Positions 2,804 through 20,000 of a stretch of 20,000 bases of DNA are shown one piece after another. Position 1 is the stretch's first letter; every line of letters begins with the position of its first letter. This DNA comes from an uncultured virus (IMG/VR IMGVR_UViG_3300032293_002550) (taxonomy: Duplodnaviria; Heunggongvirae; Uroviricota; Caudoviricetes), in the IMG/VR virus record IMGVR_UViG_3300032293_002550. One strand, 5' to 3'. The notes under the pieces were generated by a model, which searched no databases, was not told the DNA's origin, and saw only the letters and a list, made by a program, of their open reading frames with translations. The position numbers and the translations under genes are program-made.

Positions 2804-4393
2804 TTAAATTGTAAATTCTCCCTCTTTTTCACCGCCTTCTTTCTTTTCTCCCTCTCCTGATTTTTCCTTTTTCTTTTTGGCTTCTTCTTTGAATTTCTCG
2901 TTGTCGAGCATATCTTGGTTAGACATCCCTAACCATCTATCTAGGGCAAATTTCAAATTGAAATATGACTTGCCTTCTGAATCTTTCAAGCCTAGTATTT
3001 TGATGACCTGGTCTTTTCTTGCTGTCATTACCTCCATCTCTTTGGCCTCCTTGAACATGTTCTCTTTAACGTAATCTAATCCAAACTCCGATTTGATTAG
3101 ATAGTCATTTTTCATTTGTGGAAAGTCCAAACAAAATTGGACCCAAAGGGGCTTCATCAGAATCTCTTGGTAGATAGAGCGAAGACGATTTATAAACTTA
3201 CCAAATCTTATTTCCTCCTGGTCTAGACCATCAGCAGAGAATGTGATAGTTCCCTCTGATCCAGAATCATCCCTACCGAACCTACTGGCAGGAACTTTAG
3301 AATCGATCCGAAGTTTGTTGGCAAAATATTGCAGAGCCTTCGTGTCAGAAAAAGCAGTTGCGTCTCCTGCTCCAGTCAATGGCTGAATATCAGGTGTACC
3401 ATTCGGTGAGGATGGCATGAGATAGTTCTTGAAAAATTGAATCTTAGGACGTCCATCAACAGTCAATTCACCACTATCAGTGTTGAGTCTTATGTCCTCC
3501 TTGTAAATGCTCATCAATTCACCAAGCGTTTGTTTGGCTTTCTGTGGGGATTTGGTCCCAATAGGAACTGTCATCGCCATCCTGAATGAGGAATTCATCA
3601 CGTTCCAAATTATTCTGGTGTGCTCCATAATCCTCAATAAGTTAAATGACCTAATAAGCCTCTCAACATAACTAATTCTAGCAGCGGTTCCTCCACCCTT
3701 TGCATAACTTATGTAGATAATTTGGGAGTCATAAAGTTTTCTTGTGAGTGACGGATTATCTGGGTATTGAATCCAAATGTCAACATAAGAACCATCTGGT
3801 TGCTGCTCAACTGTGGGAACTAATGAAGCAGCATCGATCTCCTTGAATCCTATGATGTTTTTTCCTTTCTTGTCAAATATGATTTCGAATGATAGATTTC
3901 CCTCGACCAGAAATTTTCTGAAGAGGTGCCAAGCAAGAATGTCTTGGTTAAACCCAAACAAATTATAGATTTCCTTATATCTTTTTTGAACCTTAGAAGA
4001 AACATCTTCATCCACATCATCATGTTGCATGAAAGAAAAATAAGCCCAAAAGTTTTTCTCGTCGTAAACTATCGATTCGTCACAAATTGTATCAAGAATG
4101 AATTCAATCTCTGGGTTTTGTGCAAAACCCTGTACATAGTGTCTTTTGTTCTTAAAATCTTTATCAAAATAAGCTATGTATTGCTTTGTTGTTGTATCAG
4201 ATCTTTTTAAACCAAATAGAAAAGCCTCATCTTTGATCCCTCCTTTTTTGAGAAACTGTGCTTCAGTGACCCCAACGGCTTGTGAATTTTTGACAACGAG
4301 ATCTCCATAGGCCATTCCAAAACTGCCTACTTTCCTAATGTTTTCGATTATTGTATCAAAAAATGTTTTCTTTCCGTCAGTAAATCCAGCCAT
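2804..4393 (-). CDS. Portal vertex protein, T4 gp20-like (paralog A, Lys/Glu tail)
   Basis: gp20-like blocks include NPEIEFILDTICDESIV, YFANKLRIDSKVP and EEIRFGKFINRLRSIY. It is 529 aa and collinear with the ORF at 1160-2800. Confidence 0.88.
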   Translation of the reverse strand: MAGFTDGKKTFFDTIIENIRKVGSFGMAYGDLVVKNSQAVGVTEAQFLKKGGIKDEAFLFGLKRSDTTTKQYIAYFDKDFKNKRHYVQGFAQNPEIEFILDTICDESIVYDEKNFWAYFSFMQHDDVDEDVSSKVQKRYKEIYNLFGFNQDILAWHLFRKFLVEGNLSFEIIFDKKGKNIIGFKEIDAASLVPTVEQQPDGSYVDIWIQYPDNPSLTRKLYDSQIIYISYAKGGGTAARISYVERLIRSFNLLRIMEHTRIIWNVMNSSFRMAMTVPIGTKSPQKAKQTLGELMSIYKEDIRLNTDSGELTVDGRPKIQFFKNYLMPSSPNGTPDIQPLTGAGDATAFSDTKALQYFANKLRIDSKVPASRFGRDDSGSEGTITFSADGLDQEEIRFGKFINRLRSIYQEILMKPLWVQFCLDFPQMKNDYLIKSEFGLDYVKENMFKEAKEMEVMTARKDQVIKILGLKDSEGKSYFNLKFALDRWLGMSNQDMLDNEKFKEEAKKKKEKSGEGEKKEGGEKEGEFTI

Positions 4394-4986
4394 TAAAACT
4401 GCATATTTTTCTTATATATCTCTTCAATCGGGGTCCCTTCAATTGCTCTAGTGTGAAGATAAACTATTCTAGTCCATTCTTCGACAGGAATTTCTATAAT
4501 GTCTCTCACTTTTTTAAGATCCCACACCCTGTAGGAATTCTTGAAGGGAATTCCAGTTAATATGGTGTTGAGAGTTTCATAGTCAGTTTTGAACTGAATT
4601 TGACTCTTTGCCTGTCCCTCTTCAACTTTTTTGATGTTGGTTTCGATCTGGGAACCGAATACACTTTGAATTTTTGTAAAGAATGGAATTCTGATCATCG
4701 GAGGCATAAGAATTAAATCAATACCGCTGAAAAGATTTTTTTCTTCTTTTATGAAATACCCGGTAAAAAAAACAACGGGTCTTTTATTTATGAATTTTTT
4801 ACTTTTTTCCAGTTTGTCATTATACTCAAAAGAATAAACCTTTCCCGTTAGAAATTCATCAGGGTTGAATTCTTTTCTTTGGTTAACGTAATTTTCAAAC
4901 CAGAATAGAAAAGAATCCTCGCCTGGAGAATTGAGAGTGGAAGATTGTAATCTAAAATCCTCAAATCTTTGATTGAAAGGTTTCAT
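4393..4986 (-). CDS. DNA end protector protein, T4 gp2-like
   Basis: GKVYSFEY..K, FSGIDLILMPPMIR and EIPVEEWTRIVYL resemble gp2 blocks (G-x-x-Y-x-F-x-Y, GLNLHYxPP, EIxPxDW). It follows gp4, as in T4-like phages. Confidence 0.78.
   Translation of the reverse strand: MKPFNQRFEDFRLQSSTLNSPGEDSFLFWFENYVNQRKEFNPDEFLTGKVYSFEYNDKLEKSKKFINKRPVVFFTGYFIKEEKNLFSGIDLILMPPMIRIPFFTKIQSVFGSQIETNIKKVEEGQAKSQIQFKTDYETLNTILTGIPFKNSYRVWDLKKVRDIIEIPVEEWTRIVYLHTRAIEGTPIEEIYKKNMQF
4413..4420 (-). promoter_or_regulatory. Putative late promoter GATATATA upstream of the portal genes
   Basis: Exact GATATATA 19 nt upstream of the portal A ATG, embedded in the 3' end of gp2. The same 8-mer occurs at 8453-8460 and 15342-15349. 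Confidence 0.55.
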
Positions 4987-5517: not shown

Positions 5518-5874
5518 TCAAATATTATAATTTGTGTTTTCTTCTTTCACGATTCTTGAAAATGGGATAGTCTTGATGGACTTAGGTGGATGAATTTTTT
5601 TCCACCCTTTTTTCATTCCATTATGAGCTATTTGGGAGATGAATGCGAATGGATTGTCAGACTTCTCTGGATCATATCGATTCCAATACTTTATGAGATC
5701 CTCAAGACCAGACGAGATACAATCTTCACGATCTTCTGTGTCTCGATATGAATGTGTCTTGCTCATTCCATTGACAATAAGAGTGAACATCTTAATTGTT
5801 TCTGAGGTTAGTTCACCTTGTTCTTTGCTTTCTAATAAAGCTCTTTTGAGTTCTTTGTTTTTAACGTAGATCAT
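5518..5874 (-). CDS. Late-transcription sigma factor, T4 gp55-like
   Basis: YVKNKEL, REDCISSGLEDLIKYWNRYDPEKSDNPFAFISQIAHN parallel gp55 YVNNKEL...EMIADGIE...NFD...NPHAYITQ. It is short (118 aa). Confidence 0.85.
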   Translation of the reverse strand: MIYVKNKELKRALLESKEQGELTSETIKMFTLIVNGMSKTHSYRDTEDREDCISSGLEDLIKYWNRYDPEKSDNPFAFISQIAHNGMKKGWKKIHPPKSIKTIPFSRIVKEENTNYNI

Positions 5875-6119
5875 TGTTCGATAGGGAGATTTTTTTGGAA
5901 CTTTTCGATTTGATTTTCTAAGCTTGTCTTCAATTTTTCCAAATTTTCCCTAGAACCCTTAATTACCTCTATCCCTATTCTACCATTTTCTAAACTGGAA
6001 GTTTCCAATTCAGTTAGTTTATCCAAACATGTCTTTAAATCATCCAAAACAAAACTGAGTCTATTTCCTAATCCCTCTTCGGGCAAGGAAACAGACTCAG
6101 ATACTAAACTCGATCTTAC
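5871..6119 (-). CDS. Coiled-coil segment, probably the -1 frameshift extension of the 772-aa protein (ORF track: 5871-6086 with TTG start)
   Basis: The frame opens just after a TAA at 6134-6132, has no ATG, and reads VRSSLVSESVSLPEEGLGNRLSFVLDDLK... Its TGA overlaps the gp55 ATG (ATGA). Confidence 0.65.
   Translation of the reverse strand, partial: VRSSLVSESVSLPEEGLGNRLSFVLDDLKTCLDKLTELETSSLENGRIGIEVIKGSRENLEKLKTSLENQIEKFQKNLPIEQ
6046..6100 (-). other. Long RNA hairpin plus U-rich tail (frameshift stimulator and/or intrinsic terminator)
   Basis: CTGAGTCTGTTTCCT (6100-6086) pairs with AGGAAATAGACTCAG (6069-6055), giving 15 bp with one G-U. An inner CCC-GAAGA-GGG stem extends it, and TTTTGTTTT follows. 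Confidence 0.75.
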
Positions 6120-8434
6120 TTTTTTTTTGTTTTAGGAGCAGAAGAAAGAGTAGCTCTTTTTTCGTCTTCCATAAACTTCTTGTTGTTCCTTTTGTGATTT
6201 CCTGGCGCTTCTGCCAAATTAGCATCTGTTTCTTTTTCAATAAACTTCTTTGGCTTTGGCATCTTGGCTTTAGGAGCTTTCTCAATGTGTGAGTTCTTCT
6301 GGCTTTCTTTTAAAGCCAAGTTGTGACCTTTTAAATCTTCGATAAATTTAGATGCACTTTTAATGACTGACGAAGGTGCCTTTGCAAGATTGGAATTGTT
6401 TAGATCCTGTGCAAAGTTTTTGCCTTTACCACTTTTACCACCTGGAGCTGAAGCTAGGTTTTGTTTTTTCGTTTTAGCTGAACCAGTCACTGGAGAATTT
6501 TTAGCTTCACCTTTAACACTGGCCATGTTAGCATTTTTTGGATCGTTGATGAATTTAGGGCTAGACTTTGTTTGTTTCGAAGGAGCAGCTGCCATATTCT
6601 TACGAGCTTGTCCCATCAAAGCACCATCTTTTTTTGTCCCTCTTGTTGGAGCAGGTGCAGTAGAGAATCCTTGGTTCATAGCCTCATTAGCCTCACCACT
6701 AAATTCTAGACTCATGTCGGGAGTTTGGATGTCGTAGTTATCTACCTCATCAACTAAATCCTCAACATCAGAGAAGAAATATTCTCCGGTTTTACCTTCC
6801 TTAAATAAAACAGTATATGTTTTAGAACTACCATCTACACCTACGATTTTACCCTTATTACCGTTTCTTTTGATTCTAACCTCTGTATCAATAGGATATC
6901 CCATTTCTTCGTTAACAGAAATTTCATTTGCTGAACTTTCGAATCTTTTGATCCCAACATTAATTTGGTTCCATTTATCCTTTAGAATCTGAAGTTCATT
7001 TTCTAGGGACTCTTCTAGATTTAATAATTGTGTGGAATTTGCGATCAAAGGATTTTCTGATTTTACTTTCGTGATCTTGATCAGTTCTGCCTCAAGAAGT
7101 TCAATGTTTTTAACAATCTCTTTCTTATCATTTTTCATGACACTTAAGAAAGCTTGTTCCCCTTGTAAGAACTCTGTTAGAGACTCAGAAATGTCATATT
7201 TCATGAACTCTTTGATGATATTGATGGCCTGGGTTGCGTTTGACTCGTAAATCTTGTTCAAGCGCATCGCAGGATTTACTGTTTGCACGTAAATTCTGTT
7301 TTCATACTTGAAAATGTTTGCTTCCACACCTTCGTATAATTTTGATTTGATCTTCTTACCAAAATCGATATCTACAATTTCATCGGCCGTTTGTGCAATG
7401 AAAGCAGCTTTAGCCGCTTTATAATTAGAGTTCTCTAAAAGGTTGTTTGTGGTCACACTAATAGCAGCTGGAAGATCTGCTTCATGAATGTGTTTGCCAT
7501 CTAAGTAAATTCTCTTTTGTTCATTTTCGAAAACAATGTCAACTTTACTTTTACCAACATTCAAAGAAATTCTGTCACCATCAATTCTAACCTCTCTATC
7601 TACAACGACAAGAGCCTTGTTTTGAAAATCTGCTGGAACATCTTCAGCTGAACACTCATTGATAGTTTTAGATGCATCGTCAATTGCTAAAAATTTCCCA
7701 CTGGAAAAGAAAATGGATCCACTTTCTGTAACCATTATTGGGGAATAAATATTAGTTACGTGACAAATGTTATTATCAACACCAAGATTGAACTTGTTTG
7801 GATTGCTGTTTTCGTGGAGTGAAAGGAAGCTAACGAGGTTTCTAACCAAAGGATTGAATCCAAATCTTTTTAATCCGTGAATCAATGTATCAGAAACATG
7901 ATTTTCTGAAATTAACCAATTCTTCATTTGAGAAGTTGCATCAGAAAACAAATCTTTTCCCGGAGCTGCCTTAATTGATTCGTAAACTTTAACAACTTCA
8001 ATTTCCCTTCTTCTATTGGCAAATATTTGGTTCAAATTTTCCACCACAGAAACAACTGAGGTCTCCCAAGAAAATGACTTGAGATCGTTCAAAAAAGATT
8101 CAAATACAAAAGCTTCTGAAATTCCGTTATGAAGAATCAAGGACTCATATTTGTCAAGTAATATTTTTCCCGCAGGCAATTCGTTAAGAGTAGAATTACG
8201 CAAAGCTGAGATGGTATTAACTAATCCAAAACTGAAGACCGTATTGTTTGATTTTGGAAAATATTCGTTGTTTGCAGACTCTTTCAACATTTGGGCGGTT
8301 GACCCATTAAGAAAAGAAGATGCAACAGGTGATTTAGAAACATCCAAACCCCCCCAAGACTTCATTGATTCAGCAACACTTTTTGAAGTCTCCATGTTTA
8401 ATCTGTCGATCTCTGGATTATTATTTTTTTCCAT
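6116..8434 (-). CDS. Large hypothetical protein, probable internal head/prohead-core protein with an SH3/KOW-like segment and basic 23-aa C-terminal repeats
   Basis: 772-aa ORF preceded by GATATATA. It has many hydrophobic-x-E(S) motifs, a coiled coil, the beta-rich segment EVRIKRNGNKGKIVGVD..TYTVLF, and NLAxAP repeats. The function is inferred. Confidence 0.6.
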   Translation of the reverse strand: MEKNNNPEIDRLNMETSKSVAESMKSWGGLDVSKSPVASSFLNGSTAQMLKESANNEYFPKSNNTVFSFGLVNTISALRNSTLNELPAGKILLDKYESLILHNGISEAFVFESFLNDLKSFSWETSVVSVVENLNQIFANRRREIEVVKVYESIKAAPGKDLFSDATSQMKNWLISENHVSDTLIHGLKRFGFNPLVRNLVSFLSLHENSNPNKFNLGVDNNICHVTNIYSPIMVTESGSIFFSSGKFLAIDDASKTINECSAEDVPADFQNKALVVVDREVRIDGDRISLNVGKSKVDIVFENEQKRIYLDGKHIHEADLPAAISVTTNNLLENSNYKAAKAAFIAQTADEIVDIDFGKKIKSKLYEGVEANIFKYENRIYVQTVNPAMRLNKIYESNATQAINIIKEFMKYDISESLTEFLQGEQAFLSVMKNDKKEIVKNIELLEAELIKITKVKSENPLIANSTQLLNLEESLENELQILKDKWNQINVGIKRFESSANEISVNEEMGYPIDTEVRIKRNGNKGKIVGVDGSSKTYTVLFKEGKTGEYFFSDVEDLVDEVDNYDIQTPDMSLEFSGEANEAMNQGFSTAPAPTRGTKKDGALMGQARKNMAAAPSKQTKSSPKFINDPKNANMASVKGEAKNSPVTGSAKTKKQNLASAPGGKSGKGKNFAQDLNNSNLAKAPSSVIKSASKFIEDLKGHNLALKESQKNSHIEKAPKAKMPKPKKFIEKETDANLAEAPGNHKRNNKKFMEDEKRATLSSAPKTKKK

Positions 8435-8452: not shown

Positions 8453-8460
8453 TATATATC
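8453..8460 (-). promoter_or_regulatory. Putative late promoter GATATATA
   Basis: Intergenic, 18 nt upstream of the ATG at 8434, followed by an A-rich leader. Confidence 0.6.
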
Positions 8461-9796: not shown

Positions 9797-13117
<3,321 letters not shown>

Positions 13118-15341: not shown

Positions 15342-15349
15342 TATATATC
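15342..15349 (-). promoter_or_regulatory. Putative late promoter GATATATA
   Basis: Lies just after the terminator and only 4 nt before the ATG at 15337. Confidence 0.6.
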
Positions 15350-15353
15350 ACAC

Positions 15354-15384
15354 AAAAAAAGACCCAGAATAAAATCTGGGTCTT
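15354..15384 (-). terminator. Rho-independent terminator closing the early/middle cluster
   Basis: The minus strand reads AAGACCCAGA-TTTTAT-TCTGGGTCTT-TTTTT, a perfect inverted repeat with a U-run. Confidence 0.9.
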
Positions 15385-15420
15385 GCCGTTTGTTAAAAAT
15401 CTTCTTATATTTTTATGGGA

Positions 15421-15915
15421 CTACTCGATTTCGATACCTTGTTCTGCAGCTTGGAGTTCTTTTTCTAACTCTTTGAGCTTGGAATTGTCTTGGTGGATAA
15501 GTGTAAGGGTTTCCTCAAATGATTTCCAAAGTGTCACAAAGTCATTAATTTGGCTGTTTCCTTTTCCCTCCCACTTGAGAATGAAATAATGTGAGGCCTC
15601 CACCTCAAGATTAGTAAAATAACCTACACCGTCTTTAATGCCCTCTTTTTTAATTTGCTCAATTCTCTTTAATATTTCCATGACCCCTAGAGCCTCTTTC
15701 GATCTCCATTGAACTTGATTTCTCATGAAATCTTCAAATTTATCTAGGAAATTTTGATCTAGGGAAACTGCATATTCTTTTCCTGATAATGACTTCTTAT
15801 AGTCTTCTATCTCTTTTTTGAGTTTCTCCACTTTTTTAGTGTCGACTTTCTGAATGAACTTTTCTAGAACCTCCTCGTTATTTGATTCTGAGCTGATGCT
15901 TTTGATCTTGGACAT
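15421..15915 (-). CDS. Hypothetical charged/coiled-coil protein (start revised to the ATG at 15915, MSKIK...)
   Basis: The ATG at 15915 follows an A-rich leader like other genes here. The ORF-track start at 15945 is a TTG in intergenic-like sequence. Confidence 0.7.
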   Translation of the reverse strand: MSKIKSISSESNNEEVLEKFIQKVDTKKVEKLKKEIEDYKKSLSGKEYAVSLDQNFLDKFEDFMRNQVQWRSKEALGVMEILKRIEQIKKEGIKDGVGYFTNLEVEASHYFILKWEGKGNSQINDFVTLWKSFEETLTLIHQDNSKLKELEKELQAAEQGIEIE

Positions 15916-15952
15916 TTTTTTATTTTTTATATTCGTTTTTTGCAATTAGTTT

Positions 15953-17171: not shown

Positions 17172-17795
17172 TCAATCATTGAATGTTAGGTTTATACCAG
17201 GAAACATGTCTCTGACCTTGATTCTTGCTCGTCTAATTCTTGTAGCAATAGCTCTTTTCTTCATTCCATGCTTATCTGCTATATCTTGGTACTTCATTCT
17301 TAATATCTCTCGGTCGAAAAGAATCTCCTTATATATTTCAGGGAGATCATTCATTTTTTCGACAACATTTTCGTAAAGTCCCTCCATCTGGTTTCTATCC
17401 TCATTGCCATAGGAAATCTCGAAATAATTTTCTTCCTCAAATTTATTCATATAAACTTGTGAATCGTCAGGATTGTCGTCCCCACCCTTAACAAATTCTT
17501 GCAGAATAGGCATGTACCTGTCTTCACTCTTTTTGATCACTAGTGACTCATTTCTTGCGATGTTGTAAACCCAGGTTGAGAAATTACCTCTCAATGGGTC
17601 ATACTGTGAGATTTTGGTCCATATCTTTGCCATAGTGTTTGAAACAGCATCTTCTGCTGCCTCTTGCTCAATTAAAATTGATTTACAATGGTGGAGAAGA
17701 CCAGGTTTGATTCTTTTGTAAAGTTCAACAAAATCCTTCTCGGATGATGTTCTCATAAAACTTTCTGCCAATTGTTGAATGTTTTTAGCTGCCAT
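17172..17795 (-). CDS. ECF-type (sigma-70 family) RNA polymerase sigma factor
   Basis: Region 2 reads AEDAVSNTMAKIW...YDPLRGNFSTWVYNIARN. Region 4 reads LPEIYKEIL...MKYQDIA...AIATRIRRAR. Confidence 0.92.
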   Translation of the reverse strand: MAAKNIQQLAESFMRTSSEKDFVELYKRIKPGLLHHCKSILIEQEAAEDAVSNTMAKIWTKISQYDPLRGNFSTWVYNIARNESLVIKKSEDRYMPILQEFVKGGDDNPDDSQVYMNKFEEENYFEISYGNEDRNQMEGLYENVVEKMNDLPEIYKEILFDREILRMKYQDIADKHGMKKRAIATRIRRARIKVRDMFPGINLTFND

Positions 17796-18528: not shown

Positions 18529-20000
18529 TCAGTCAAACTTTTTTGTTGTTGGAGTTACTAACAAGGGACTTGAAAGCGTATCATTCAATTGAGACAAAAG
18601 AAAAATCATTGAATCCATTTTCTTAGCAAGCTCATCATTTGAATTTTCTTGATTCTGATTTTGTTGTCCTTGGTTCACTTTGGTCGCTTCTTTTTCTTGT
18701 TCAGTTCCTTTGTTTTCTACATAAGTTGGAGTGTCGTTAGACTTAGATTGTGCCTGTTCCTCCCTTATTTTCTGCTCGGATTTTTGTGTTTCTGTGGCAG
18801 TCTTTTCTGGGACGATTACGTCACTCAACTTTTGTGGTGTATTCTCTTTTATACTACTAGGGGACAAAGAAGTTTCAGCTTCAGTTACATTTTTTTCTTG
18901 AATTTTTTCTGTTGATGTTGCCATCACCATCGTTTGCCCCATGCTAACGCTTTCGTTAGGAATAGGTTCGTTTGATGCCTCAATAGAAGCTCCCCTTGAA
19001 GAAGAAGGAGCCGTTTGATTGGTCTGTAACCCAGATTTTGTTGTTTCTACCTTAGGTTCAGCATTTTTTGTTTCTTCAAGCTTGGATGTTTCTTCTTTGT
19101 CCTTGGAAAACAACTTTTTGATTCTTCCAAAAACTCCTTTTTTTGTATCTTCTTCAGACGATTCTATTGTTTGTGGATTTTGTGTTTGTAATTTTTCCTG
19201 GGTCCTAGATACCATTGGAGAAGTTTCACCAACTGATGTAGATGTTTGAGCTTGTTGTTTATCCTCTAATGAAATTTCTTGCGATTGGCCAAGCTGTTGT
19301 GGGGTTTGGACCAAGCTAGATTCTTCCAAGCTAACTTCTTCGTTTGTTGAAATATCTTTTGCAGCTCCTGAATTTTCAACGACATTTTCTTTATTCTTTG
19401 TACCCTCGATTTGGGATGTAGTATTAGCATCAGGATTAAGAGATTCTTGATTCTTTTGGTCAATTACATTTCCTTGAATAGGTGGTGTATCTCCAGTACT
19501 CTTAGCATTTTGTTGTTTTTCTGTATTCTCTGGACCTTCTTTTTTTTCATCCCTTTTAAAAATTTGTCCAATAGTTTTAAGTAAACTAGGTCTAGTAGAT
19601 TCTCCCCCCTTAGATGGTTCAACTGCTCCACCTAATTTTTGTATGTTAAACCCCAACAAGGGTTTTGCAAGAATCCCCGCCACCGCTTTAGCAGGTTCTA
19701 TCATCGACTTAATTTCAGACCCCTTTTCTTGTGCCTCTTCCTTTTGGCTTCCAGTAGGCACAGGAGACGTAGATTGCTTAGTCCCCTCTGTTGGTGCAAC
19801 CTTGGATGTTTGGGGATTTACAGCCTCAACCATTCCTTGTGGATTCACAACGAGTTCTGGTGCTTGAGTTGGAGCAGGTACAGCTGGTGTGGCAGGTACA
19901 GCTGGTGTAGCAAGTGTTGGAGCAACAGGAGCACCAGCAGCCTCAACCATTCCTTGTGGATTCACAACGAGTTCTGGTGCTTGAGTTGGAGCAGGTGTAG
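18529..20000 (-). CDS. Long low-complexity (Q/E/S/T/K/P/A-rich) protein, 5'-truncated by the window edge
   Basis: The frame stays open from 19965 to the window edge (TPAPTQAPELVVNPQ...). The composition is mostly disordered-type, with a short helical C-terminus (ELAKKMDSMIFLLSQLND). Confidence 0.75.
   Translation of the reverse strand, partial: TPAPTQAPELVVNPQGMVEAAGAPVAPTLATPAVPATPAVPAPTQAPELVVNPQGMVEAVNPQTSKVAPTEGTKQSTSPVPTGSQKEEAQEKGSEIKSMIEPAKAVAGILAKPLLGFNIQKLGGAVEPSKGGESTRPSLLKTIGQIFKRDEKKEGPENTEKQQNAKSTGDTPPIQGNVIDQKNQESLNPDANTTSQIEGTKNKENVVENSGAAKDISTNEEVSLEESSLVQTPQQLGQSQEISLEDKQQAQTSTSVGETSPMVSRTQEKLQTQNPQTIESSEEDTKKGVFGRIKKLFSKDKEETSKLEETKNAEPKVETTKSGLQTNQTAPSSSRGASIEASNEPIPNESVSMGQTMVMATSTEKIQEKNVTEAETSLSPSSIKENTPQKLSDVIVPEKTATETQKSEQKIREEQAQSKSNDTPTYVENKGTEQEKEATKVNQGQQNQNQENSNDELAKKMDSMIFLLSQLNDTLSSPLLVTPTTKKFD
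19821..19996. repeat. Exact 59-bp direct repeat, 117-bp period, in frame
   Basis: 19821-19879 is identical to 19938-19996 and encodes PAPTQAPELVVNPQGMVEA. Confidence 0.92.

Follow-up and report, generated by a model that had tools for sequence, protein, structure and literature searches.

A nine-adenine run conserved at the end of a gene of uncultured T4-like phages points to programmed recoding into an overlapping frame

The DNA analysed here, referred to as the window, is a stretch of 20,000 nucleotides (nt) from an uncultured T4-like phage contig (IMG/VR record IMGVR_UViG_3300032293_002550), in which every gene lies on the minus strand. The present work concerns the 3' end of one of these genes (6116-8434, minus strand, in the list of open reading frames, ORFs), which encodes a protein of 772 amino acids (aa) with no assigned function, and the overlapping -1 frame that continues beyond it. 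Read on the minus strand, the gene ends with the codons ACA (6130-6128), AAA (6127-6125), AAA (6124-6122) and AAG (6121-6119), and the zero-frame stop codon TAA (6118-6116) stands directly 3' of the last of these. The putative recoding site is the run of nine A's (A9) at 6128-6120, the single instance of an A9 or T9 run in the window. It holds two overlapping heptamers, A_AAA_AAA (6128-6122) and A_AAA_AAG (6125-6119), which follow the X_XXY_YYZ pattern in the zero frame and across which the -1 frame is open. An earlier note on this DNA had already described this gene end, with the second heptamer abutting the stop, and its reading of the minus strand holds.

The -1 frame is closed by a TAA just upstream of the run (6132-6134, minus strand), so a shift into it must occur within the run. 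It opens at 6131 and ends at a TGA (5873-5871), yielding an extension of 82 codons and a stop (5871-6119, minus strand; VRSS...PIEQ) that reads GTA AGA TCG... (VRSSLVSESVSLPEEG...PIEQ) and, as the earlier note had also stated, contains no ATG. A hairpin with a 15-bp outer stem and an inner CCC/GGG (6055-6100, minus strand) begins 18 nt after G6119 and is directly followed by the U-rich tract TTTTGTTTTGG (6044-6054, minus strand), and the terminal TGA overlaps, in an ATGA at 5874-5871, the start codon of a gene for a gp55-like late sigma factor (5518-5874, minus strand; phrog_234 at 1.8e-16, Sigma70_r2). Neither the U-rich tract nor this overlap had been mentioned in the earlier note.

A scan of viral contigs returned 78 related loci, three of which are cut off before the end of the gene, leaving 75 usable. 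In 66 of these, a run of nine or ten A's is followed by a stop codon and by a -1 ORF of 79-86 codons. The run-bearing loci represent 42 distinct sequences, with protein identities of 41-100%. Most present the form C-A9-G-TAA (37 distinct sequences, 56 loci), the others being C-A9-G-TAG (two sequences, three loci), G-A9-G-TAA (one sequence, one locus), C-A9-C-TAA (one sequence, two loci) and C-A10-TAA (one sequence, four loci); the A9C variant retains the whole system. Run length is exactly nine in 41 of the 42 distinct sequences, and the stop adjoins the run in all 66 loci (TAA in 63, TAG in three). The linker and the hairpin loop vary in length by lineage, and the frame leading from the run to the conserved part of the extension is kept in every one of the 66; the +1 frame closes after 2-8 codons. 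At the far end, the extension meets the sigma-factor start in an ATGA at 48 of the 66 loci and in a one-base overlap (TAATG or TGATG) at 12, with the sigma-factor ATG lying 8 or 18 nt past the extension stop in five and unmatched by the pattern in one. A second scan, for which the hairpin arms served as the sole anchor, identified 31 related loci, mostly on the same contigs, and all of them carry A9. Aligned across homologous loci, the heptamer, the stop and the -1 ORF on which the earlier note had built its proposal are therefore conserved, and the stem covaries.

In all 42 distinct sequences, the codon that precedes the run (ACA, TCA, GCA or AGA) has A at its third position; among ACN, TCN and GCN codons in these genes, 38% end in A and more than 50% in T. 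The last lysine codon is AAG in 40 of 42, though AAA makes up 75% of lysine codons, and it thereby caps the run. In 294 kb of distinct related loci, coding-strand runs of seven and eight A's number 356 and 39, respectively, and 56 of the 61 runs of at least nine are instances of this site. Within the window, one other in-frame A_AAA_AAG was observed among the 16 coding A6G heptamers (18538-18544, minus strand); it lies three codons before the stop of a 478-aa gene, and the -1 frame closes there at once.

On this comparative evidence, the extension is a coding sequence under purifying selection. The 42 sequences aligned over its full length yield the consensus ...ES...EG.GNRL.F.LDDLK.CL.K.KELETSS.ENGKIGI..I..SRKNLE.L...LE.QIEKLQNN.P., and its conservation as protein starts at residue 8. 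The median ratio of nonsynonymous to synonymous substitution rates (dN/dS) is 0.315 over 781 pairs, and codon-position entropy (0.78/0.53/0.99) is highest at the third position. By segment, pN/pS falls from 1.10 in the linker, the seven residues that come after the run, to 0.60 over the hairpin and to 0.46 and 0.42 in the segments beyond it. These data bear on the proposal that the open -1 frame is untranslated and a mere by-product of terminator and promoter constraints in an intergenic spacer. Such signals are indeed conserved even in relatives without the ORF, and the spacer has a similar length in both kinds of locus. However, 79-86 stop-free codons are maintained in 42 distinct AT-rich sequences whose other two frames are full of stops, third-position variation and a dN/dS of about 0.3 are coding-like, and the ORF-less relatives with the same signals have stops in all frames, making an untranslated frame highly improbable.

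If the extension is translated, it could in principle be so from a start of its own, and an ORF finder does list a 71-aa gene here, beginning at a TTG (6084-6086, minus strand). As the earlier note had observed, this TTG lies within the 15-bp stem and is not preceded by the A-rich leader that is typical of gene starts in the window. It stands at the top of the 5' arm of the stem (6086-6084) and is not conserved in relatives; the A-rich leaders of the other genes are devoid of a Shine-Dalgarno (SD) sequence. An ATG is absent from the extension in 34 of the 42 distinct sequences, and three (L076, L081 and L083) present no ATG, GTG or TTG whatever. The first such codon is either absent or found at codon index 24 or above, inside the conserved protein, in 36 of 42, and protein conservation begins upstream of the candidate starts. 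Short proteins have occasionally been called in this frame, amounting to five clusters of 51-71 aa. An exhaustive profile search of 1.84 billion representatives returned nine matches for the extension, of which eight are truncated ORF calls of 45-74 aa starting at varied profile positions (11-39); the ninth, a weak, multi-stretch match to a 494-aa protein, is taken as coiled-coil noise. An ordinary small gene, starting at TTG 6086 or at another internal codon and preceded by a merely lysine-rich C-terminus, is hence very improbable, all the more so as the run and the ORF are lost together (see below), and the TTG gene sometimes called here is an artefact.

A further explanation is that a homopolymer error of one base hides a true A10, a caveat of the earlier note, or that the frame was broken by a recent mutation, the gene really being a continuous 854-aa ORF. 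Homopolymers are error-prone, and a single contig (X2 record 4) bridges the run, without difference, and may be the source of this very DNA. A second contig (X3 record 7) also spans the run, but one of its flanks has only 18 letters and so falls short of the 31-letter rule applied, and three 34-nt pieces of relatives cover 6116-6149 gap-free; this contig-level evidence does not amount to read-level proof of A9. The nearest record (G001; 29.6 kb, estimated completeness 11%) matches with 100% identity and is the same contig, and it is therefore not independent. The interrupted layout, though, recurs in 42 distinct sequences from many assemblies, and the A10 lineage still has an in-frame stop directly after the run. 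A word-indexed search identified 155 homologues of the 772-aa protein; among the 120 clusters listed (42-96% identity), none exceeds 785 aa or approaches the roughly 855 aa of an in-frame fusion, and 104 end in KKK. Neither an in-frame fusion nor a full-length stand-alone gene for the extension was detected among the 1.84 billion representatives, and a search for its domain in proteins of 145-2000 aa found none, a result that the tool's own note classes as weak evidence. For tail variants that would break the run (KRK, KRN), the DNA of P0083 was present in neither the viral nor the metagenome contigs. The error put forward as a caveat thus finds no backing in the homologues, and we consider it exceedingly improbable; in-frame fusions and a conserved independent start, which would have spoken against recoding, were looked for and not found, and the idea of recoding stands.

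The loci that lack the run are informative in the same respect. All nine of them (L058-62, L082 and L084-86) also lack the -1 ORF, the frame closing after 2-24 codons. In these loci the gene ends in ...KKSK, ...KNSK, ...KNKLK or ...KKGK and is followed by a plain hairpin and U-tract, by some 150-230 nt with stops in all frames, a spacer of similar length to that of ORF-bearing loci, and by the sigma-factor gene. A quick maximum-likelihood tree of 37 proteins, which carries a long-branch warning and from which L082 was left out on account of its truncated gene, places the ORF-less loci in two groups, each sister to a run-bearing clade (L084/86 to the distant clade, L058/59/61 to the main one), which amounts to two changes on the tree. 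Since the extensions of the two run-bearing clades are homologous, we infer a single origin and at least two losses, each removing run and ORF together. The L082 spacer can be aligned to the ORF with indels and looks like a decayed copy of it. The longer proteins of L084 and L086 (848 and 845 aa) were inspected as possible fusions and rejected, their C-terminus being unlike the extension (hhalign probability 0.09%).

Taken together, these observations make programmed recoding, whether by the polymerase or by the ribosome, very probable, and they lend strong comparative support to the two isoforms, of 772 and about 854 aa, that the earlier note had predicted to arise at the A run. The majority of expression would end at the TAA (6118-6116) and produce the 772-aa protein, and a minority would enter the -1 frame and produce an 854-aa isoform comprising the same 772 residues and an 82-residue helical tail. 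Both routes of recoding would generate an identical protein, reading ...T-K-K-K-V-R-S-S... across the junction, and explanations other than these two are, even when added up, unlikely.

The downstream hairpin had been regarded in the earlier note as a possible aid to ribosomal frameshifting, and its presence as a strong structure 18 nt downstream of the site is confirmed by folding. The segment 6020-6135 has a minimum free energy (MFE) of -37.2 kcal/mol (z = -6.7), with none of 200 shuffles as good, and the segment 6040-6119 an MFE of -30.8 kcal/mol (z = -5.8). A strong hairpin with a U-rich tail was found in all 42 distinct sequences, the stem sequence being different in the group with 41-43% identity. 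Over a helix of 14 pairs in 39 aligned sequences, 92.3% of cells are paired, versus 30-40% when the partner is slid, and compensatory changes occur at seven helix pairs, with none of 500 shuffles reaching the score. The structure is a stable, G+C-containing stem-loop and is followed in the window by UUUUGUUUU, the signature of an intrinsic terminator; a simple terminator scan did not list it, since that scan accepts loops of up to 8 only, and a search against Rfam returned no matching family and a chance microRNA match only (E = 0.53). Relatives that lack the slip site and the ORF present a hairpin and U-tract at the same place, and the hairpin arms of L082 (CUGAG...CUCAG) are common to the window's hairpin.

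Given the U-tract that follows it and its presence in relatives without the slip site, the hairpin appears to be the intrinsic terminator of the gene, lying inside the recoded ORF. Its spacing does not correspond to that of a classical frameshift stimulator, for which a structure 5-9 nt after the heptamer would be expected. In the window it begins at 18 nt and in relatives the core stem lies at about 16-29 nt from the run codon, too distant and too variable for that role, and the assistance to a -1 shift suggested in the earlier note is accordingly not borne out. In some relatives, weak A:U pairing of an A-rich linker with the U-tract lengthens the helix, so that its base lies 7-13 nt from the run codon, a spacing that counts these weak extensions together with the core stem; in such relatives the hairpin may have a side effect on ribosomes. 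In most relatives with at least 57% identity (L012-L047 and others), a second conserved hairpin, of the UAGACGAUUUGAAAGAUUGUCUA type, immediately follows the U-tract, at about 70-105 nt from the run. It is weak in the window, and some of its folds engage the U-tract in pairing with A-rich sequence further downstream.

These results bear directly on which machine slips. The candidate put forward in the earlier note is a ribosomal -1 frameshift at A_AAA_AAG. In such a model, tRNA-Lys would slip on this heptamer or on A_AAA_AAA, aided by the slow adjoining stop (a 'shifty stop') and with or without help from the hairpin. The heptamer stands in the correct frame, the base next to the run is G in 40 of 42 distinct sequences, the stop is invariably adjacent, and the downstream structure is conserved and covarying, with the helix base at 7-13 nt from the run codon in the relatives with A:U extensions. 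A_AAA_AAG is reported to be highly shift-prone where a single tRNA-Lys reads both lysine codons (PMC5009743), and ribosomes have also been described to slide on poly-A (PMC4363877). On the other hand, the core hairpin is too far from the run and its persistence in relatives without a slip site indicates that it exists for another reason. No SD-like element of the dnaX type, which would be expected about 10 nt 5' of the heptamer, was found in the window, where the upstream sequence is TCTGCTCCTAAAACA, and a GGGAG upstream of the run is present in one lineage only (the L023 group). Conservation, moreover, extends past the A6G heptamer, with one lineage carrying A9C and another A10, whereas known A_AAA_AAG sites such as those of dnaX and IS3 have only six A's. 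Where two tRNA-Lys species exist, AAG is reported to be poorly slippery (PMC5009743). The recoding proposed in the earlier note is hence upheld, but the ribosome as its main route is a tentative option that we rate below slippage by the polymerase.

Slippage of RNA polymerase is at least as much indicated by the data because the element that is conserved is the whole A9 run, bounded by C or G on one side and by G or C on the other, and not the heptamer alone. Runs of nine A's or T's are described as an efficient length for slippage by bacterial polymerases, matching the 9-10 bp RNA:DNA hybrid (PMC5009743), and the run analysed here is uninterrupted and lies inside the overlap of two ORFs, as in the 9A/9T class of slippage sites. 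A conserved 9A within a conserved ORF overlap has also been put forward as a comparative criterion for functional slippage (PMC1088944), and the organisation of run and ORF is kept here in non-identical homologues down to 41% identity. On balance, we lean towards polymerase slippage on A9 as the main route. The polymerase would slip on the run, and one extra A in some of the transcripts would put the extension in frame; other slippage products would be harmless, since the +1 frame closes within a few codons. Ribosomal -1 slippage on the same run may contribute.

A number of points weigh against polymerase slippage as the main route. The combination of an in-phase A_AAA_AAG and a stop right behind it is equally a classic site of ribosomal shifting, its slipperiness depending on the tRNA-Lys set of the host, and the conservation of A9 is compatible with ribosomal slippage, because the first A is also needed for A_AAA_AAA. 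The invariable adjacency of the stop would not be needed for slippage by the polymerase, though the layout of tssM1, discussed below, is the same. The 42 distinct sequences are mutually related, and the counts derived from them are not independent events. If the terminator is efficient, it would cut most recoded messages short some 70 nt beyond the start of the extension, before any stop codon is reached, and the yield of full-length 854-aa protein could then be very small. Lastly, both the long isoform and the extra A's of the transcripts are deduced from sequence. The locus constitutes a natural test case for polymerase slippage versus ribosomal frameshifting on one and the same sequence.

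Recoding on poly-A giving rise to a C-terminally extended isoform is of a known kind. The closest layout is that of tssM1 in Citrobacter rodentium and tssM in Yersinia pseudotuberculosis, for which slippage on a poly-A tract directly before the stop has been reported to yield two length variants (PMC4256274). As in the site analysed here, the A run of tssM1 abuts the zero-frame stop, extra A's put the downstream ORF in frame and the variants share their N-terminus, and that source describes both forms and their ratio as needed. The tssM1 run is described as having 11 A's instead of nine, and the longer variant there regains a canonical domain, which other species have as a fusion, whereas no fused homologue was found here in the searches made. 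The gene studied here differs further in being a probable phage late gene whose putative recoded ORF crosses a terminator and ends on the start of the next gene. In the dnaX tau/gamma system of Thermus thermophilus, in insertion sequence (IS) transposases and in mapW, RNA polymerase slips productively on runs of exactly nine A's or T's, the run length of the present site (PMC5009743, PMC1088944). As described there, slippage in T. thermophilus dnaX yields the shorter product, unlike what is predicted here, and the IS cases fuse the transposase OrfA to OrfB, none of these cases being a phage structural or late gene with a terminator in the overlap.

The sites of Escherichia coli dnaX and IS3/IS911 consist of six A's, are followed at a distance of about 5-9 nt by an RNA structure and in many cases have an SD-like element on the 5' side. 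They share with the present site the heptamer, its phase and, as predicted here, a second product that differs at its C-terminus; here, in contrast, nine A's are found, the structure appears to be a terminator and lies 18 nt away, and there is no SD-like element. Phages are known to make two isoforms in other systems, such as the tail assembly chaperone G/GT and the T7 capsid proteins 10A/10B. The arrangement predicted here resembles these in that overlapping frames give a late protein whose short form predominates over a less abundant one with an extended C-terminus, and differs in gene family, slip sequence and, probably, mechanism. T4-like phages are reported not to frameshift for their chaperone (reference 44 cited in PMC10885494). 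No description of this site, gene family or phage clade was found among the papers listed in literature searches. The comparative data outline what appears to be a deeply conserved recoding, invisible to gene callers, in a widespread clade of uncultured freshwater T4-like phages, for which only five to eight truncated ORF calls represent an extension present in dozens of genomes. For annotation, it follows that a stop right after a conserved A9 run should not be taken as the gene's only end.

Besides the terminator, the extension overlaps DNA elements that are kept irrespective of the ORF. These are a TTGGAAACTT motif (5999-6008, minus strand), which encodes ELETS; an extended -10-like element, TGGTAGAAT (5977-5985, minus strand), conserved as GGTAnnAT; and a CCAAAATAATT-like sequence just before the sigma-factor ATG (about 5884-5900, minus strand). 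All three are conserved also in the ORF-less loci L058, L059, L061, L082, L084 and L086; a mismatch search for TTGGAAACTT elsewhere in the window was uninformative. The three elements probably belong to the promoter and leader control region of the sigma-factor gene itself, in which case the extension overprints both a terminator and a promoter region. The recoded ORF would then contain the terminator and the control DNA of the sigma-factor gene and end on its ATG. Such a layout, with translation passing across both regions as far as the start codon of a late sigma factor, is unusual.

This layout raises a further interpretation, which we retain because an efficient terminator would end most recoded messages inside the extension, but which is rather unlikely. 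Besides encoding a protein tail, the recoded ORF could serve as a regulatory bridge. Those ribosomes that have entered the -1 frame would translate through the terminator hairpin and run on to the ATGA at the late sigma-factor gene, whereas those stopping at the TAA would halt 15 nt short of the hairpin and leave it free. If this were the case, recoding would suppress termination of the late transcript and couple to it the translation of the sigma factor, and late transcription would feed back on its own sigma-factor supply at a rate set by a poly-A slip site.

The 772-aa protein had no match at threshold in Pfam or PHROG, a sequence search of the PDB identified no relative of known structure, and a collection of phage GenBank records yielded no DNA match and, at the protein level, a single weak match, in an uncultured phage that lacks annotation; in these collections, the protein is therefore without a cultured-phage relative. 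It comprises an N-terminal folded part, a weak SH3-like stretch (aa 518-544), for which a sub-threshold match to MSSS SH3 is observed in 22 of 45 homologues, and a tail rich in Lys, Ala, Ser and Pro (aa 566-772; 6119-6739 in the window). The tail is of low complexity and basic (K 17%, A 13%), with about six repeats ending in N[LM]A.AP, of the form KKF[IV]EDLK..NLA.AP, and in the short isoform it is probably disordered. The extension, in turn, is predicted to form a helical hairpin. An Atlas model of its residues 12-82 (predicted local distance difference test, pLDDT, 0.72) has two-helix arms as its best structural matches, among them the N-terminal domain of seryl-tRNA synthetase, and these name no function. 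The model suggests that the long isoform adds a folded two-helix element to the long basic tail and, by analogy with known two-isoform systems, the likeliest purpose of recoding would be to equip a constant minor fraction of the molecules with an additional module for interactions.

Upstream of the 772-aa gene, a GATATATA motif (8453-8460, minus strand) lies 18 nt before the ATG and constitutes a candidate late promoter. The motif has three matches in the window versus 0.55 expected, a number reached by three of 200 shuffles, and all three (4413-4420, 8453-8460 and 15342-15349, minus strand) lie on the coding strand shortly before the start of a gene, namely of the first portal gene, the 772-aa gene and a tail-like gene, respectively. 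In the 31 homologous loci examined, which include relatives without the recoding site, a TATATA was found 21-35 nt upstream of the ATG in every case, and by eye each of these corresponds to GATATATA. TATAAATA, the consensus of T4 late promoters, does not occur in the window, and a simple promoter scan of the window returned no convincing promoter. We infer that GATATATA is the late promoter of this clade, differing from that of T4, and the 772-aa gene is accordingly a probable late gene. A hairpin with a T-run (gacccagattttattctgggtcttttttt; about 15353-15385, minus strand) was also observed after the gene at 15421-15945 and just before the GATATATA of the next gene, a layout of terminator followed by promoter that is the same as at the site studied here.

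The DNA has a G+C content of 30-41%, and no tRNA genes were found in the window. The sequencing runs listed as containing it derive from lake-water metagenomes, with no RNA run among them. In addition to the sigma-factor gene, the region downstream of the site carries genes for a gp4-like head completion protein, a gp2-like DNA end protector, two T4-type portals and a DNA ligase, and upstream of it are small unknown genes and a gene for a 1106-aa collagen/PA14 fibre protein. The latter (9797-13117, minus strand) combines a PA14 domain with a long region of Asn-rich repeats and, near the N-terminus, collagen-like GxT repeats, and is probably a fibre or adhesin. The tandem portal (gp20) genes (1160-2800 and 2804-4393, minus strand) encode proteins of 546 and 529 aa with 49% identity over 515 residues, both matching Portal_T4 at about 1e-59, and such a duplicated portal is unusual for a T4-like phage. 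A second sigma-factor-like gene, besides the gp55-like one, was identified at 17172-17795 on the minus strand (phrog_1740, 1.6e-23).

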